Part shown: positions 54,855 through 60,973 of the stretch, in pieces
Position numbering within the stretch: position 1 is the first letter of the stretch
Layout: every line of letters starts with the position of its first letter
From: Candidatus Omnitrophota bacterium
Lineage (GTDB): Bacteria; Omnitrophota; Gorgyraeia; B26-G9
Length of the DNA: 64,000 nucleotides
Direction: 5' to 3'
Assembly (NCBI GenBank): GCA_018813905.1
Contig: JAHJAO010000031.1
Span: forward strand, 5,922 to 69,921
Position numbers and translations under genes: made by a program
The notes under the pieces: generated by a model
What the model was told of the DNA's origin: nothing
Seen by the model: only the letters and a program-made list of their open reading frames with translations
Databases searched by the model: none

Positions 54855-54886
54855 TGGAGCCAAGGGGGAGGCTCGAACCCCCGGCC
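54855..54886 (-). other. tRNA 3'-end-like fragment (T-arm + acceptor), near-duplicate of the tRNA-Ala 3' end; possible att-site remnant
   Basis: The reverse complement GGCCGGGGGTTCGAGCC matches the tRNA-Ala T-arm exactly. No 5' half or anticodon arm was found upstream. Confidence 0.4.
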
Positions 54887-55036
54887 AGTCGCTCATAACA
54901 CTCGCTCCTTAAGGGAACACCTTGATGGTTTTCCCTTAAGTGTCTCTTTCCTTCCGCCAAGATGCTCAGGTGCGCCGATAGGCGGAAACAATCTTTCCTC
55001 CTAAAATCTCCTTTTGAGGCCGGAGGATTCTATCTT

Positions 55037-55112
55037 TGGTGGAGCCAGGGGGGCTCGAACCCCCGGCCTCCTCGTTGCGAACGAGGCGCTCTCCCAGCTG
55101 AGCTATGACCCC
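55037..55112 (-). tRNA. tRNA-Ala (anticodon CGC)
   Basis: The reverse complement GGGGTCATAGCTCAGCTGGGAGAGCG...TTCGCAA...GGTTCGAGCC...TGGCTCCACCA carries the G3:U70 Ala identity pair and an encoded CCA. Confidence 0.85.
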
Positions 55113-55171: not shown

Positions 55172-55396
55172 TTATAACTCAAACCCTTTTATCTTTGGCT
55201 TCCTTTTTGCAAAAGACTCCTTGACGCCATCAAGTGTTTGCTGAAGTGCGGTGAATATTTTCTCCGTATCTTCTTCCGAGTATTCATATCCCGGCGAGGA
55301 AAGATTACCGATGAGTTCTATTTTCTTAATTGCGTTTTGAACCCTTTTGCCCGCTAACCTTTTAAACCGGTCATGCTTGCTTTCTTGCCCTTCCAT
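55172..55396 (-). CDS. Hypothetical small protein (74 aa)
   Basis: The ORF alone supports this call. Its position is consistent with being last in the signalling operon. Confidence 0.35.
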   Translation of the reverse strand: MEGQESKHDRFKRLAGKRVQNAIKKIELIGNLSSPGYEYSEEDTEKIFTALQQTLDGVKESFAKRKPKIKGFEL

Positions 55397-55475
55397 TTTT
55401 TACCCTCCTTTTTTGAAATTTTTAACCAATAAAGATAGAGACAGTTTAGGGGTTTTTGGCAGGATTGTCAACCCT

Positions 55476-55640
55476 TTAGCTGCGCCGATGGGAAACGATT
55501 ATCGCGCCGATTATGGCGCCCAAAAGAGTGCTGATTACCGGATTGCTCGTTAACGGGCACAGGCCGGATGCGCATTTGCCGAAATAACCGATCGCAAATC
55601 CAACCGCTCCGCCGATTAATACGCCTAAGATTGTGTTCAT
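55476..55640 (-). CDS. Unlisted small (54 aa) membrane protein with CxxxC motif (MNTILGVLIGGAVGFAIGYFGKCASGLCPLTSNPVISTLLGAIIGAIIVSHRRS)
   Basis: Hand-translated from the minus strand. The protein has two Gly-zipper TM helices flanking CASGLCP. It is missed by the 60-aa ORF cutoff. The overlapping 95-aa ORF is in another frame and is RK-rich, so it is likely spurious. No strong SD. Confidence 0.45.
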   Translation of the reverse strand: MNTILGVLIGGAVGFAIGYFGKCASGLCPLTSNPVISTLLGAIIGAIIVSHRRS

Positions 55641-55655
55641 TTTTATATCGCGTGT

Positions 55656-55973
55656 CTATTTTGAAGCGGATTCGTCTTTTAACTTCTTTAGCAATAAGGG
55701 AGTGAGAATAAAGCAGTCTTTTTCTGCGTCTTTTACCAGGCGGTAAAAATCGCAATTATTTAAGCAATTCTTGAATTTTTTGGCAAATTCGCCCTGTGTT
55801 TTTCCCGCACATAAGGTGCTGGCAATAACCCAGCAGGCCCGGCCGGCGTTTGTCCCGCCATGCGTGTCATGAAGGCGTTTTTCCGTAGCCGCCGGACAAA
55901 CTCCAAATTGCTTTTCCTGTGCCCCTCCCGGCTGCCGGCCACAGTTTTTATGTTCCCAACAATTCTTTTTCAT
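55656..55973 (-). CDS. Small Cys-rich protein with two Cys-Trp motifs (two-CW-domain-like), paralog 1
   Basis: NCWEHKNCG...VCPA...RACWVI, plus 4 more Cys. Its 5' 150 nt are near-identical to the adjacent paralog. Confidence 0.65.
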   Translation of the reverse strand: MKKNCWEHKNCGRQPGGAQEKQFGVCPAATEKRLHDTHGGTNAGRACWVIASTLCAGKTQGEFAKKFKNCLNNCDFYRLVKDAEKDCFILTPLLLKKLKDESASK

Positions 55974-55988
55974 AAGTATGAGTTCTGC

Positions 55989-56312
55989 TTATTTTTTAGA
56001 TGCATCTTCTCGTATCTTTCTAAGTAATACCTGGCTTAAAATAAAATGGTTTGGTTCTTCAGTTTTTACGAGATGATAAAAATCGCACTCCAAGCATTTT
56101 TTGAACTTTTTAGCGAAGTTCTCTTGTACGCTGCCATTGCACATGGTTCCGGTTATAACCCAGCAGGCCCGGCCGGCGTTTGTCCCGCCATGCGTGTTAT
56201 GAAGGCGTTTTTCCGTAGCCGCCGGACAAACTCCAAATTGCTTTTCCTGTGCCCCTCCCGGCTGCCGGCCACAGTTTTTATGTTCCCAACAATTCTTTTT
56301 CATAATATCCAC
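55989..56312 (-). CDS. Small Cys-rich protein with two Cys-Trp motifs (two-CW-domain-like), paralog 2
   Basis: Same N-terminal 50 aa as paralog 1, with one D/N difference. The C-terminal half has diverged. Confidence 0.65.
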   Translation of the reverse strand: MDIMKKNCWEHKNCGRQPGGAQEKQFGVCPAATEKRLHNTHGGTNAGRACWVITGTMCNGSVQENFAKKFKKCLECDFYHLVKTEEPNHFILSQVLLRKIREDASKK

Positions 56313-56357
56313 TCCTTTTTTAAAAATTAACTATCCATTATCTGTAGTACTGGACGC

Positions 56358-56993
56358 TTATTTTGCGCTTTTTATATACCCTTGTACTTCCTGAAAACTG
56401 GCTGTAGGAGAACCGACCATGTTGCCCCGCCGGTCAAAGACGCGGATATTAGGGACGCTGCGGATATTGTACTGCTGGACGAGCGGAGTTTTCCAGTTAA
56501 CAATATCTATCTTTCGCAAGAATACATCCGTGTCGGAATTTGCCAACTGTTCAAGATAGGGGCTTATTCTGCGGCAGGGGCCGCACCAGTCCGCGTAGAA
56601 ATCAACAATGGTTATTTTGCCCAGGATAATTACATCCGATAAATCGATATGTCTGCCGCCCTCTTTGTAAATCTTGATGGCTTGGGTTTCGGATTTTTCT
56701 TTCTCTGTTTTAATCTTGTCCATTTTTTTTATTCTGTTGCGGCCGGACTCCAAGCGCTGTTCGAAATCTTTATCGATATCGGTTACCACGTTATCCCTTA
56801 AAATTATCATGCCGCCCGGATAGCTTAAAATTTGTTCATCACCGCTACTTACTTCTCCCGAGGGCTGGCCAAATTTCGCGACGACTTCCTCTCTGGTAGT
56901 TCCCACGCCGACTTCGGACTGTGCGCTTGCCGTTGTTAAAGCGTAAAAGAATACTGCGGTTAGTGCAAACATGGTTATCCGGAAAAAATTCAT
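56358..56993 (-). CDS. Secreted thioredoxin-domain protein
   Basis: Signal peptide MNFFRITMFALTAVFFYALTTASAQSE. Thioredoxin motif FYADWCGPCRR. Confidence 0.8.
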   Translation of the reverse strand: MNFFRITMFALTAVFFYALTTASAQSEVGVGTTREEVVAKFGQPSGEVSSGDEQILSYPGGMIILRDNVVTDIDKDFEQRLESGRNRIKKMDKIKTEKEKSETQAIKIYKEGGRHIDLSDVIILGKITIVDFYADWCGPCRRISPYLEQLANSDTDVFLRKIDIVNWKTPLVQQYNIRSVPNIRVFDRRGNMVGSPTASFQEVQGYIKSAK

Positions 56994-57060
56994 CTTGATC
57001 CTCCTTTCTGCCCCCATCTGACCGGATACCGTTTGTTTGTTTGCCTGAAAGACTAACGCA

Positions 57061-57996
57061 TCAGGTATTCCGCCGGCTGTCACGGACAAAATTACTACCC
57101 GTAACTGATTTGGCTAATTTTTTAAGTTCCGCGCCGATTTCACCGATTTCGGCCGCGTGAGAAATCGTGCGGTATTCGTTAGTGACAATACCAATAGATA
57201 CGGAAATTAGAAATATTTGGGCGATATTGCCCTGCCGGTCTTTGGCCGCAATGAAGCCACGTTCCCGGTCTTCTTTGTTATAAAATGATGGGGCTATTTT
57301 ATCAAAGTCGGAGATAATGTGTTTGCAAATCGTTTCTGACTTTTCCGGGGTAGTCAGACAAACAAAATCATCACCGCCGATATGTCCGACAAAATCGTCC
57401 TTATTACCCTTTTCCATCACCGTGCTCAGGATAATTCGCGCTGATTCGCGGATAACCTCGTCTCCGTGCTCAAAGCCGTAAGTATCGTTGTAGGACTTGA
57501 ATTTATCCAGGTCAATATAGCAAATTGCAAAGGGTTTTCCGCTTTTTATCGCGGCTTCGAATTCGCTCATTATTGTTACATTGCCGGGCAGACGGCTTAA
57601 AGGATTCGCGTCCAAATCGCGGGTGCTTCTGCGAACAATCATATTGATACGGGCGACCAATTCCTGAGGGTCAAACGGTTTGACCACATAATCGTCAGCT
57701 CCGGCGTTTATACCCATGACTTTATCCTGGGTTTCGCCTTTGCCGGTGAGCATGATAACCGGCATGTGCCGAAGCAGGATGTCTTTTTTTAGTATTTGGC
57801 ATACCTCCAACCCGTTCATGCGAGGCATTTTGTAATCTAAAATCACAATATCGGGCGAGGTTTTATGCACTTTTTCCAAGCCGTCTACGCCATCTGTGGC
57901 TTCATAGACTTCAAAACCTTCGCCTTCTAAAGTTATTTTCAAAACATCACGGATATCGGGTTCATCATCGATTATTAGAATTTTTAGTTTTCTCAT
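57061..57996 (-). CDS. Response regulator receiver domain fused to GGDEF-type domain (motif GGDDF)
   Basis: REC: ILIIDDEPDIR...VILDYKMP...VIMLTGKG. GGDEF domain: YIDLDKFKSYNDTYGFEHGDEVI...GHIGGDDFVCL. Confidence 0.8.
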   Translation of the reverse strand: MRKLKILIIDDEPDIRDVLKITLEGEGFEVYEATDGVDGLEKVHKTSPDIVILDYKMPRMNGLEVCQILKKDILLRHMPVIMLTGKGETQDKVMGINAGADDYVVKPFDPQELVARINMIVRRSTRDLDANPLSRLPGNVTIMSEFEAAIKSGKPFAICYIDLDKFKSYNDTYGFEHGDEVIRESARIILSTVMEKGNKDDFVGHIGGDDFVCLTTPEKSETICKHIISDFDKIAPSFYNKEDRERGFIAAKDRQGNIAQIFLISVSIGIVTNEYRTISHAAEIGEIGAELKKLAKSVTGSNFVRDSRRNT

Positions 57997-58025
57997 AAAA
58001 AAATAATTGCTCCTTATCAGTGCCT

Positions 58026-59606
58026 TTAAGCTACGGTGACGTTGGAATCTTCGATCTGCTGCGTAGACAAAGTGAAATGAAAAGCGGTGCCTTTGCCTAC
58101 TTCGCTGGTGACCCAGATTCGACCTTTATGGGCCTCGACAATTTTTTTGACCAAAGACAGGCCAAGACCGGTTCCTTTCTTTTCCACATTAATAACATTG
58201 TCGACCCGGAAGAATTCGTCAAAGATCCGGTTCACGTCTTCCGGGGTTATGCCAATACCTGTATCCGCGACTTCGATATTTATAAAATCACTGCCCGGAA
58301 TTACCTTGATGGTTATTTTGCCTTTTTCCGGAGTGAATTTTAGCGCGTTACCGATTAAATTGATGAAGACGCGTGAAATCTGGCTTGAGTCCATCCAGAC
58401 CATGACCGGTTCTTTTGGGGTATCCAGTTCCAGCTTGATTTTTCTTTCGTCCGTTTGCGGGAAAAACAAATCGGCAATACTTTCGACAATTTCCGTAAGA
58501 GATGAATGCTTAATCTTCATACCGATTTTTCCCGATTCTATGCGCGCGATATCCAACAGGTCATTGACCAATTTTATGAGTTCGTCACTGTGCACGTTAA
58601 TTTTTGTTAATTTTTCTTTTTGTACATTGGTGACATCGCCAAGTCTCCCCGCGCTCAAAATCGAAGCATACCCTTTTATTGAAGTCAGCGGTGTCCTTAA
58701 CTCGTGGGAAACGGCGGATACGAAATCGGATTTCATCTTATTGAGTTTAACCAGCTGAATATTAGCTTCCGCCAGTTCTTTAGTGCGTTCTTTAACCCGG
58801 ACTTCCAGGATATCGTGAGAGTGCTTGAGTTCTTCGTAGAGCCTGGCGTTTTCAATGGCAACGCCTAACTGATTGGAAAGGACGAATAAAGAATCAATAT
58901 CTCCCTCAGATATTGTGTTATAAGGATTGCTGTTGCCGACAAAAATATACCCCTCGACCTTTTCTTTGATGACCATGGGCACAACGACGAAGGAATTTAC
59001 GTGAAAAAGATTAAGCCATTCAACCTGTTCTTGAGTAGCGCTTTCAAAATTTTTTACCCAGATGGAACTGCCCATGTGAAAAACGGTTTTTAAAAATTCG
59101 CCGGATATTTTTTTGTTCCGGATATTTTCCAGCTCATCCGGCTTGAAACCTATCGCGGCTTTAGCGGCGGTAACGTCTTTATCCCGATCCGTTAAAACAA
59201 TCATCGCTTTTTCAAATCCGAGTTTCAAAATTAAAGGTTCGGTGATTTGGGCAAAGAGTTTCTCCGCATCCAATGTGGAGTTGATTAGCTTGCCTAATTC
59301 GTGCAAGGTATATAAACCGTTAACCTTTTTGTCCAGCTCTTCCTGCGTGCGGTTAAGTTCTAAGTCTGTCCGGATAATAATCTTGGCCTGATCGTCAAGT
59401 TCGTTATAAGCATTTCTTAATTTATCCAACGCCCGCTGCATCTTCCCAATTTGTTCGCTTTTTTCTCTTGTTAATTCGGCAAGATACGCTAGCAGTACAA
59501 GCAGGATAAAACCGCCCATTAACTTGGCGACCATATTGTCGACAATGACCACCACGCTTAAGACCACGGCTCCGATTATTAATATTAACCAGATATTGAT
59601 TTTCAT
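58026..59606 (-). CDS. Sensor histidine kinase with GAF domain (2 N-terminal TM helices, coiled-coil, GAF, HisKA, HATPase_c)
   Basis: H-box SHELRTPLTSIKGY. N box IGNALKFT. G boxes DTGIGI and GTGLGLS. Confidence 0.85.
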   Translation of the reverse strand: MKINIWLILIIGAVVLSVVVIVDNMVAKLMGGFILLVLLAYLAELTREKSEQIGKMQRALDKLRNAYNELDDQAKIIIRTDLELNRTQEELDKKVNGLYTLHELGKLINSTLDAEKLFAQITEPLILKLGFEKAMIVLTDRDKDVTAAKAAIGFKPDELENIRNKKISGEFLKTVFHMGSSIWVKNFESATQEQVEWLNLFHVNSFVVVPMVIKEKVEGYIFVGNSNPYNTISEGDIDSLFVLSNQLGVAIENARLYEELKHSHDILEVRVKERTKELAEANIQLVKLNKMKSDFVSAVSHELRTPLTSIKGYASILSAGRLGDVTNVQKEKLTKINVHSDELIKLVNDLLDIARIESGKIGMKIKHSSLTEIVESIADLFFPQTDERKIKLELDTPKEPVMVWMDSSQISRVFINLIGNALKFTPEKGKITIKVIPGSDFINIEVADTGIGITPEDVNRIFDEFFRVDNVINVEKKGTGLGLSLVKKIVEAHKGRIWVTSEVGKGTAFHFTLSTQQIEDSNVTVA

Positions 59607-60797
59607 CTATTCTCCCAAGGCGCAAACGACAATGGTTTCGTTATGGAAAAAAGTCTGTCCTAAATGCACCGCTGCGCCCAGTGGCGCCTGTTCGCCGTAT
59701 GTGTAAAACCCGATAATCGGCGTGTTTTCGCCAAAGATACTTTTAACGATTTCTATTTCCCGGTATGCGGCCCGGCCAAATAATCTTTGCCTGGCTACGG
59801 AGTCAAAAATAAAAACGAGTTTTGGCTTAGCTCGGTAAAGCCCTTCCCGCGCCATTTCGGCCGCTTTCTTTGCGGCTTTCAGAGCGGTCTCTTTAGAGCC
59901 CATCATCACATGAATTTCAGAACCCTTTGGAATTTCTCCGGCGCAGATCAAGGCTCCTTCATTATCCACGCGCAATGCGTTTCTAATGATACATTCTTCC
60001 TCTTCGGGGATAGACATGCCCAAAGGATACATGATCGACATCCGGGCCATTGGTTCATGCTGTAAATCGCTTACCCGTTTGCCGAAATAGTCTTCGTAGA
60101 TGCGTACTGCCGGTTTACCGTCAAGCTTTTTTAAGATGTTGTGCTCAACGTCGGTAACGATCCGCGGTTTGCCTAAAGGGTACCAGCCGTGCCGGGCACC
60201 GATGCCTACGCTTATATCGCCTGAGATTAAAATCCCGGGTACAGTATCCTCGTAAATTTCATTATTAAAGAACTGATAAGTTTTTTGAAAAAGAAAATCA
60301 TCTGCTGCTGAGCCGCCGACGATGGGAAAGCTTGTCCCCAAAATCTCCTGAATCCCGCGGATTATTTCTACCACGTTGCCTTTTAAGCCGTCGGGAAACA
60401 TCATGAAGGCGTGCCGGATAGACGACGATCTGGTTTTGGCAACTGTGTCTTTAGCGATAAACTGTCCCGCTTGCCGCGGCAACGCGCTAATGTTTTTGCC
60501 TAGAGATAACCCGATCTGCAAAGAATTGGATTTTAAAACTAAAATCGTAACCGATTTTTTATCCGGCCCCGCGCTTGTGATCTCTCCAGCTGTTGTGCAG
60601 CCGACTATTGGGGCGGTCGGGACGGTGCTTTTTATGCCGCGGATAAGTTCTTTATGGTCAAACCGCGCCGATGCAAAACAAAAAACTATATCCGGGTCTT
60701 GTTTGCCCATCTTTTCCAGCGCCGCATGTGCCGCCAAAGCCCCGGCGCCGAATGAATCAATTTCCTTACTTGTTCCTACCCCGACAAAGAGTGCCAT
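59607..60797 (-). CDS. FIST domain sensory protein
   Basis: FIST_N/FIST_C-like architecture: ...DIVFCFASARFD...IVGCTTAGEI... with C-terminal GFYTYGEQAP. The gene abuts the kinase gene. Confidence 0.7.
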   Translation of the reverse strand: MALFVGVGTSKEIDSFGAGALAAHAALEKMGKQDPDIVFCFASARFDHKELIRGIKSTVPTAPIVGCTTAGEITSAGPDKKSVTILVLKSNSLQIGLSLGKNISALPRQAGQFIAKDTVAKTRSSSIRHAFMMFPDGLKGNVVEIIRGIQEILGTSFPIVGGSAADDFLFQKTYQFFNNEIYEDTVPGILISGDISVGIGARHGWYPLGKPRIVTDVEHNILKKLDGKPAVRIYEDYFGKRVSDLQHEPMARMSIMYPLGMSIPEEEECIIRNALRVDNEGALICAGEIPKGSEIHVMMGSKETALKAAKKAAEMAREGLYRAKPKLVFIFDSVARQRLFGRAAYREIEIVKSIFGENTPIIGFYTYGEQAPLGAAVHLGQTFFHNETIVVCALGE

Positions 60798-60973
60798 AAT
60801 TATATTTTAGTTTATAACTTGTTGCAAAAAATGTCAACCCTTCGAGCGTGCGATGATAAAGACCAGCGTTTCCTCGTTAAATTTTTCTGTTAGGGTTGCC
60901 ATTGAGAAATAAACTTTTTCCCCTTTGGAATTGTTGCCGGCCGGCAATATTTACGCCCGGCACAGGATGCGGT

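Follow-up and report, generated by a model that had tools for sequence, protein, structure and literature searches.

The 64,000-nt stretch of DNA analysed here, further called the window, belongs to a Candidatus Omnitrophota bacterium (assembly GCA_018813905.1, contig JAHJAO010000031.1, positions 5,922 to 69,921) and contains at 55172-60797 eight consecutive open reading frames (ORFs), all of them on the minus strand. In the order of reading they encode a solo FIST protein, a histidine kinase, a response regulator with receiver (REC) and GGDEF domains, a thioredoxin-fold protein (Trx), two tandem paralogues of the cysteine-rich two-CW family (CW1 and CW2), a small DUF6132 membrane protein and a protein of 74 amino acids (aa), p74 (Table 1). 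Database proteins named Candidatus Omnitrophica bacterium are 100% identical to proteins of the window and mark its source as an Omnitrophota metagenome-assembled genome. The first-pass annotation, made from the letters alone, took this group for a single novel system of thiol-, redox- or metal-dependent signalling through cyclic di-GMP (c-di-GMP). Its ORFs were found in place, and its FIST, GAF kinase, REC-GGDEF and thioredoxin assignments were all matched in profile searches of the window proteins against Pfam and NCBIfam. With modest confidence we regard the locus as a composite, in which a NosP-like FIST-kinase-REC/GGDEF module is followed by lineage-specific genes, the two-CW pair being a possible input and p74 standing apart.

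Table 1. Genes and other features of the cluster and its borders (coordinates of the window).
Feature	Coordinates	Strand	Basis
FIST_N + FIST_C solo protein, 396 aa, NosP-like	59607-60797	-	Pfam FIST 173 bits, FIST_C 104 bits
Histidine kinase, 526 aa, GAF + HisKA + HATPase_c	58026-59606	-	Pfam, NCBIfam
Response regulator REC + GGDEF, 311 aa	57061-57996	-	Pfam REC 115 bits, GGDEF 58.9 bits
Thioredoxin-fold protein with WCGPC, 211 aa	56358-56993 (longest ORF 56358-57089)	-	Pfam Thioredoxin 58.5 bits
Two-CW protein 1 (CW1), 104 aa	55989-56303 (longest ORF to 56312)	-	NF045718 106.2 bits
Two-CW protein 2 (CW2), 105 aa, tandem paralogue	55656-55973	-	NF045718 100.9 bits
DUF6132 small membrane protein, 54 aa	55476-55640	-	Pfam PF19628 48.0 bits
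p74, 74-aa protein	55172-55396	-	no family match
Promoter-like site GGGTTGACA-N17-TAAACT, before FIST	60809-60840	-	motif scan
Promoter-like site GGGTTGACA-N17-TAAACT, second copy, between DUF6132 and p74 genes	55443-55474	-	motif scan
tRNA-Ala(CGC), downstream cluster boundary	55037-55112	-	ARAGORN; Rfam tRNA 64.4 bits

The start codon of the kinase gene abuts the FIST stop codon exactly, as had been noticed, and the remaining intergenic gaps measure, in order, 29, 67, 54, 15, 15 and 79 nt. The overlap of the regulator and Trx genes described at first arises only with the TTG start of the longest ORF: orthologues of 211 and 210 aa set the Trx start at ATG 56993, which gives 211 aa and leaves the 67-nt gap. 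For CW1 the most likely start is ATG 56303. No convincing terminator is predicted between the genes of the eight-gene region. The promoter-like motif was met twice in the whole 64 kb, where shuffled sequence gives an expectation of 0, and its upstream copy ends 11 nt before the FIST start codon, suggesting a very short leader or none. Both copies are also found in L081, an NCBI Omnitrophota assembly with the same arrangement; this conservation is weak evidence because L081 is ~96% identical in the region of the FIST motif. The region between the DUF6132 and p74 genes is 98.7% identical to L081, the flanking genes 89.7% and 95.6%. From the positions of the two sites we infer that the seven genes from FIST to DUF6132 make up one transcription unit and p74 another, so that Trx, CW1, CW2 and DUF6132 would probably share a transcript with the core. 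The upstream neighbours of the cluster are trpB-trpA, and an Rfam scan of the cluster gave no riboswitch or other RNA except the tRNA-Ala. A defence-system or phage reading was rejected, PADLOC and PHROGs giving no meaningful matches.

The FIST, kinase and regulator core

The FIST protein aligns end to end with the NCBIfam NosP model NF041558 (residues 21-383 to model positions 10-362 of 368) at 122.7 bits, below the cut-off of 450, and is, by these scores, a distant NosP relative and not an equivalog member. Its architecture is of NosP type: FIST_N and FIST_C make up a solo protein and a histidine kinase gene follows immediately 3'. A sequence search for a solved FIST structure found none. 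The kinase is built in the order of two N-terminal hydrophobic helices, a coiled-coil stretch, GAF, HisKA and HATPase_c. The helices are read as a membrane anchor; with almost no loop between them, a periplasmic sensor domain is not expected, and the inputs of the kinase would be its GAF domain and, by analogy, the FIST protein. Its score against the NahK/ErcS model NF041832 is 135.5 bits, below the cut-off of 400, and Pfam finds no C-terminal receiver besides the three domains listed in Table 1. The length of the kinase is kept among orthologues, with 526 aa in L081, L084 and L087-L091 and 525 aa in L107.

The GGDEF domain of the regulator exceeds the gathering score of PF00990 (23.8 bits), with model positions 20-109 of 161 aligned. 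All 8 of 8 regulator orthologues (L081, L084, L087-L091, L107), down to 43% FIST identity, carry the signature GGDD[FY], and this invariance argues for selection on a working active site. In the alignment with PleD the regulator keeps the metal-binding Asp of the IDLD stretch as well as the guanine-binding Asn and Asp, which we take to be PleD N335 and D344, and its C-terminal AK..G.N stretch resembles that of canonical cyclases. The position aligned to the RxxD site of PleD reads NKDD, so that the inhibitory site is absent; similar residues replace it in all eight orthologues. GGDD[FY] together with NKDD-like residues is, as far as alignment tells, a conserved non-canonical cyclase signature of this regulator family. 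On phosphorylation the regulator would make c-di-GMP. A precedent for a GGDDF enzyme is GSU1937 of Geobacter sulfurreducens, which is catalytically active (PMC8835794). It shares the non-canonical signature but belongs to the Hypr type, in which the specificity position is occupied by Ser, makes cyclic GMP-AMP (cGAMP) and has a transmembrane N-terminus, whereas the window regulator has the canonical Asp aligned to PleD D344 and REC as an input.

This set of genes resembles the NosP-NahK-NarR pathway of Legionella pneumophila (lpg0279-0277), with its solo FIST-FIST_C protein, the kinase co-cistronic with it and a regulator of c-di-GMP metabolism, and the pathway of the same type represented by the NosP-NahK pair in Pseudomonas aeruginosa (PMC8846402; bioRxiv 10.1101/604611). 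Common to both arrangements is a FIST_N + FIST_C gene directly upstream of the kinase gene, then a GGDEF response regulator. The differences are that the window proteins both lie under the NosP and NahK/ErcS equivalog cut-offs, that the kinase, unlike NahK, appears membrane-anchored, has a GAF domain and is without a C-terminal receiver, and that the regulator, unlike NarR, has GGDEF only, without EAL, and carries the GGDDF motif without an RxxD site. The core is thus, judged by its proteins and their order, a pathway of known type, NosP-NahK-NarR-like in layout and logic and not orthologous, which speaks against the claim of a single novel system; as a cyclic-dinucleotide pathway, FIST-kinase-REC/GGDEF is plausible.

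The two-CW family and its tandem pair

Membership of CW1 and CW2 in the two-CW family, suggested at the outset by resemblance, was borne out by the hidden Markov model NF045718, the cut-off of which is 35 bits (scores in Table 1): residues 6-84 of CW1 and 3-82 of CW2 both cover positions 1-79 of the 80 in the model. Both proteins are full members, with both CW dipeptides (motifs NCWE and ACWV) and all seven cysteines that are invariant in the family. The expectation of two CW motifs was correct, that of at least six further cysteines in each was not for CW1, which has seven cysteines, two in the motifs and 5 more; CW2 has 8 in all. The family is named in NCBIfam without a described function. 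Across 156 domains the seven cysteines are >=95% conserved and the only frequent His 52%. A Cys-Pro is invariant in the family. A profile of 120 homologues recovers 1,856 representative clusters (50% identity) at E <=1e-3 and 1,036 at 1e-10, and stand-alone members are 50-64% identical to CW1 across phyla. Pfam has no two-CW model and gives no match of any kind for CW1 or CW2; a PDB profile search with 120 sequences returned chance matches only, a fold search no similar solved fold, and a literature search on the domain nothing relevant. The AlphaFold2 (AF2) model of CW1 has a mean predicted local distance difference test (pLDDT) score of 86, and its first 65 residues show little regular secondary structure.

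Several assignments of the family were tried and rejected. A ferredoxin, rubredoxin or other characterised Cys-rich family found no match by Pfam, PDB sequence search or fold search, in agreement with the first reading. The eukaryotic zf-CW zinc finger, similar in name, has no Pfam match in either protein. A precursor of ribosomally synthesised and post-translationally modified peptides was set aside in view of ~55-60% identity across phyla, enzyme fusions at either end and radical S-adenosylmethionine proteins among 2 of 76 downstream neighbours.

The domain company of two-CW is more telling. Among the best 150 representatives 89 are stand-alone (<=150 aa) and 6 have two domains in tandem; where the protein exceeds 190 aa, two-CW stands at the N-terminus 28 times, at the C-terminus 18 times and internally 4 times. 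Pfam partners among 41 longer members are HATPase_c (14), HisKA (9), REC (9) and PAS (8), then GGDEF, MCP signal, Pkinase and cNMP-binding (2 each) and NIT, Hpt, STAS, PP2C and class III cyclase (1 each). In five minimal kinases two-CW is the only domain besides the kinase core, with HATPase_c in 5/5 and HisKA detected in 3/5 (two-CW-HisKA-HATPase in P0167, P0270 and P0242; two-CW then HATPase_c only, by Pfam, in P0166 and P0248). Other architectures are two-CW-PAS-GGDEF (P0138), GGDEF-two-CW (P0130), REC-two-CW (P0136, P0143), two-CW-REC (P0137), NIT-MCP-two-CW (P0159), two-CW-cNMP-Pkinase (P0220), two-CW-PilZNR-PilZ (P0197) and two-CW-class III cyclase (P0185). Judged from such architectures two-CW clearly belongs to signal transduction, and its place as the sole extra domain of soluble kinases, together with its attachment to almost all kinds of signalling output, is most readily understood if the domain serves as an input or a modulator. 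On this view a free-standing copy would behave as the single-domain accessory sensors H-NOX or NosP do.

Two side observations concern these fusions. In a Planctomycetia metagenome-assembled genome (MAG; L077, 7281-10297) a receiver that runs on into a two-CW domain comes after a MASE3 histidine kinase; this REC-two-CW is split into two ORFs (frameshift or sequencing error) and matches the intact P0136 and P0143. Furthermore, the fusions at L031 10004-10516, L054 4778-6004 and L061 9980-10924 and in P0134 end in a conserved ~60-aa Cys/His-rich stretch reading L-P-x-C-A-W-C-K-K-I-R-D-D-x-G-Y-W...F-T-H-G-x-C-P-E-C. In P0134, the sole protein with this stretch scanned by Pfam, PAS domains only were found; the stretch may be another uncatalogued output or metal-binding module.

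Most likely two-CW would be a cytoplasmic sensor module; the grounds on which metal or Fe-S binding is proposed for it are seven fixed cysteines, the invariant Cys-Pro, sparse secondary structure of the Cys-rich part and largely anaerobic-type hosts. A rival reading, which we consider unlikely, takes the domain for a purely structural, zinc-stabilised interaction or scaffold module for signalling complexes and not for a sensor. The occurrence of the domain at either protein end, the scarcity of secondary structure in the first 65 residues, typical of metal-knit small domains, and fusions to non-signalling enzymes such as NAD-dependent epimerase would suit a scaffold. Several soluble kinases, however, have two-CW as their sole non-catalytic domain, which is the expected place of an input domain; seven cysteines are odd for plain Zn(Cys)4 sites, the one frequent His being only partly conserved; and the named members come mainly from usually anaerobic lineages (Thermodesulfovibrionia, Desulfobacterota, Omnitrophota, Methanoregula, Thorarchaeota), though with a few Nitrospira MAGs.

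As functional analogies only, two known modules may be compared. The chemoreceptor zinc-binding (CZB) domain is found in E. coli DgcZ and many chemoreceptors (PMC8846402). Like two-CW it is a small cytoplasmic module rich in metal ligands, carried by chemoreceptors and GGDEF cyclases, and both appear to serve as inputs to chemoreceptor/GGDEF outputs. H-NOX/HnoX with HnoK is comparable to the stand-alone two-CW proteins as a single-domain sensor encoded beside a kinase or cyclase and acting by contact, and both H-NOX and two-CW domains are elsewhere fused to signalling outputs. Unlike two-CW, H-NOX carries haem, its fold is solved and its genes are strongly linked in operons, whereas stand-alone two-CW genes are weakly linked to kinase/receiver genes.

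The window differs from the rest of the family in holding a tandem, partly gene-converted pair. Within the window the first 156 nt of the paralogues are 96.8% identical and the remaining 3' part 62.3%; within L081 (9671-10315) the corresponding values are 99.4% and 66.7%, and between orthologues of the window and L081 88-89% and 94-96%. This pattern points to gene conversion which, by these comparisons, would be ongoing and limited to the Cys-rich 5' half. The Cys-rich N-terminal half is thus homogenised, while two distinct C-terminal halves are kept, each with the last two cysteines and the terminal helices. Such an arrangement would suit a shared sensing chemistry directed at two different partners, or two proteins that work only as a pair. 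Tandem two-CW fusions met in nature (P0003, P0121, P0122, P0124) favour pairing. In the AF2 model of the tandem P0003 pLDDT falls <50 from residue 110, the second domain being without alignment depth. At 55758-55763 of CW2 (..CLNNC..) a one-codon AAT duplication turns the near-invariant terminal CxxC into CxxxC; CW1 and the CW2 orthologue of L081 keep CxxC. The insertion could be tolerated, damaging or an assembly error.

Conservation of the gene linkage

A metagenome scan with the FIST protein yielded 80 loci at 40-78% identity, the ORFs of which were searched with all eight window proteins; counts refer to the 41 loci with >=3 kb downstream of FIST. A histidine kinase lies within the next two genes after FIST in 37/41 and a receiver domain downstream in 37/41; an orthologue of the ~311-aa REC-GGDEF regulator is downstream in 6/41, a thioredoxin in 2/41, and two-CW, DUF6132 or p74 in 0/41. 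The closest relatives (FIST ~70-78% identical) keep the triad of FIST, 526-aa kinase and ~311-aa regulator and are variable after it: a convergent gene follows directly in L088, L089 and L091, Trx and then a methyltransferase in L084, Trx and then two single-domain receivers in L087. Trx thus stands after the regulator gene only in L081, L084 and L087. The full arrangement recurs elsewhere only in L081, with 90-98% DNA identity over the whole region; the two therefore belong to one species-level lineage, and L081 does not count as independent evidence.

The two-CW side was covered by a scan of one genome per species, which gave at least 572 two-CW loci; the best 80, all from other genomes than the window's, were examined within 10 kb. 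They are mostly from Nitrospirota/Thermodesulfovibrionia and include Desulfobacterota, Omnitrophota, Planctomycetia, Myxococcales, Verrucomicrobia, Ignavibacteria, Cloacimonadota, Dehalococcoidia, Parcubacteria and Methanoregula. No homologue of Trx, DUF6132 or p74 was found at any of them (0/80). FIST occurs at 1/80, a Methanoregula MAG (L060) in which the two-CW gene precedes FIST by 72 nt and genes for a PAS-rich kinase and a receiver come after FIST. Among other neighbours are PAS, HAMP, HD, GAF, REC, HisKA/HATPase, sigma-54 activator and PilZ proteins. In a Thermodesulfovibrionia clade (L009, L029, L049, L076 and similar) two-CW is placed between divergent selB and convergent selA, a SelB-type upstream neighbour being met 6 times and a SelA-type downstream neighbour 7 times among ~78 loci. 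This placement suggested a selenoprotein, but in the loci examined no interruption of the two-CW ORFs was seen, and the reading was dropped for them.

The Trx gene encodes a signal-peptide-like N-terminus (MNFFRITMFALTAVFFYALTTASA), seen also in orthologues, then a small N-terminal domain, a Lys/Glu-rich linker and the Trx domain with WCGPC; PF00085 is passed (cut-off 23.5 bits) and the equivalog TIGR01068 is not (60 against 96.8 bits). Hence Trx looks exported, whereas the two-CW proteins, without a signal peptide, look cytoplasmic, which makes a direct thiol relay between them unlikely. Of the initial idea of a thiol/redox c-di-GMP pathway, the signalling context of two-CW and the plausible FIST-kinase-REC/GGDEF route stand. 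DUF6132 matches PF19628 over residues 4-49 (gathering score 23.2 bits) and consists of two Gly-zipper-like hydrophobic helices flanking C-A-S-G-L-C, so its motif is Cx4C and not the CxxxC first reported. A literature search on DUF6132 found nothing relevant. Elsewhere its homologues have as neighbours NIL-ferredoxin, a Na/Ca exchanger, a flavodoxin-like protein or, in one further kind of context, sulfur-transport genes of rhodanese/YedE type, and the homologue loci examined show no link to two-CW or Trx.

These data bear directly on the view that the seven or eight genes together constitute a single dedicated and novel c-di-GMP system for thiol, redox or metal sensing, with Trx and two-CW as its sensory or cofactor parts. 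It can appeal to the common strand, the short gaps and the lack of a predicted internal terminator, to a promoter-like site before FIST with the next only after DUF6132, to the grouping of Cys-rich or CxxC-type proteins, and to fusions of two-CW with GGDEF, REC and kinase domains elsewhere. Against it stand the counts from both sides, that is, 0/41 FIST loci with two-CW or DUF6132 and 2/41 with Trx, and 0/80 two-CW loci with Trx or DUF6132; the unrelated surroundings of DUF6132 homologues; a second example limited to a genome of 90-98% DNA identity; and the apparent residence of Trx and two-CW in different compartments. We regard such a system as very unlikely. Co-conservation of the cluster in relatives, by which the first-pass annotation proposed to judge its reading, fails for the tail of the cluster. 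Outside this lineage, co-occurrence of two-CW with the cluster genes reduces, at the two-CW loci examined, to the one FIST locus and a weak enrichment of kinase and receiver genes.

A different view holds that two-CW and DUF6132 landed between Trx and tRNA-Ala in this lineage and act on other targets, for instance as general redox-responsive modulators of several signalling proteins, being unrelated in function to the adjoining two-component system. Stand-alone two-CW genes are multi-copy, several genomes giving three or four loci each, and scattered among very different neighbours; the two-CW/DUF6132 cassette is 90-91% identical in DNA to L081 against 96-98% for the core; the closest other relatives are without the cassette; and a tRNA gene with a tRNA-derived fragment adjoins it. 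Opposed to this are the gaps of 54 and 15 nt on the same strand and the absence of a strong promoter-like site of its own (best 9/12 matches), the independent two-CW/FIST adjacency in Methanoregula, and fusions in which the partners of two-CW are of just those domain types that the upstream genes encode. Accidental neighbourhood seems to us rather unlikely.

The border of the cluster adds some observations. p74, which the first-pass annotation counted but did not describe, has no family in Pfam, NCBIfam, PHROGs or PADLOC; its homologues number 214 matches, and every named one among the 120 listed belongs to Omnitrophota, at 60-92% identity. One of them lies on a different contig of the assembly carrying the L087 FIST operon. 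We judge p74, from this distribution, to be a phylum-specific conserved protein separate from the signalling cluster. Proteins of p74 type (~75 aa; L168 8001-8225, L170 5001-5228) are met in varied contexts, and a small protein after DUF6132 in another Omnitrophota genome was rejected as a p74 homologue. On the minus strand at ~54860-54990, there lies 3' of tRNA-Ala a stretch of ~110-125 nt that L081, collinear in other respects, does not have. At its end the T-arm and 3' acceptor strand of tRNA-Ala are repeated (54866-54886, 95% identical to 55048-55068); ARAGORN and Rfam call no gene in the stretch, which could be a scar of integration or a repeat derived from a tRNA.

Proposed signalling and its meaning

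In the composite reading that we prefer, the FIST protein would control autophosphorylation of the kinase encoded immediately after it, the membrane-anchored GAF kinase would phosphorylate the REC domain of the regulator, and phosphorylated REC would switch on the GGDDF cyclase, with c-di-GMP as the most likely product. The two-CW pair may add a second input to the operon. The seven invariant cysteines of each protein would bind metal, Fe-S or Zn, in one or two centres, a change in the redox or occupancy state of these would alter the protein, and through direct contact this state would reach a kinase, receiver or cyclase, the likeliest partners in this lineage being the probably co-transcribed kinase and regulator. 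CW1 and CW2 probably respond to one common signal and act each on a partner of its own, or else combine into a pair.

A number of results weigh against this scheme. The FIST ligand may not be nitric oxide (NO) or haem, the NosP score being so far under the cut-off. The GGDDF signature departs from the canonical [G/A/S]G[D/E]E[F/Y], and for PA3258, another GGDDF protein, no diguanylate cyclase activity or effect on c-di-GMP levels is reported (PMC8835794). Two-CW matches no known cluster-binding motif. Its linkage to FIST is, in the genomes scanned, confined to one species-level lineage plus one archaeal locus. Homologues of kinases and receivers make up 6.3% of genes at positions 1-2 from stand-alone two-CW genes and 3.0% at positions >=4, a weak enrichment (odds ratio 2.2, p = 0.02), and the neighbours are otherwise heterogeneous, with many unrelated enzymes.

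Beyond the operon, one may tentatively think of two-CW as a new class of cytoplasmic sensor module with an unseen fold, which would bind metal or Fe-S through its seven cysteines and confer redox, gas or metal sensitivity on histidine kinases, response regulators, cyclic-dinucleotide enzymes, chemoreceptors and Ser/Thr kinases of diverse bacteria and archaea, largely of anaerobic type, and of the two free copies as giving the NosP-like pathway a second thiol- or metal-based input; this reading is possible rather than probable.

For Omnitrophota, a little-studied phylum, the core would provide a further example of a FIST accessory sensor joined to a kinase and a cyclic-dinucleotide output, and the operon is also an instance of selection maintaining GGDD[FY] as a cyclase motif. 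More is gained from two-CW than from the operon core: it is large as a family, strongly conserved and wired into most major classes of prokaryotic signalling output. This makes two-CW a well-defined target for a new sensory cofactor or chemistry, for which the minimal two-CW-HisKA-HATPase kinases are cleaner study systems than this operon.

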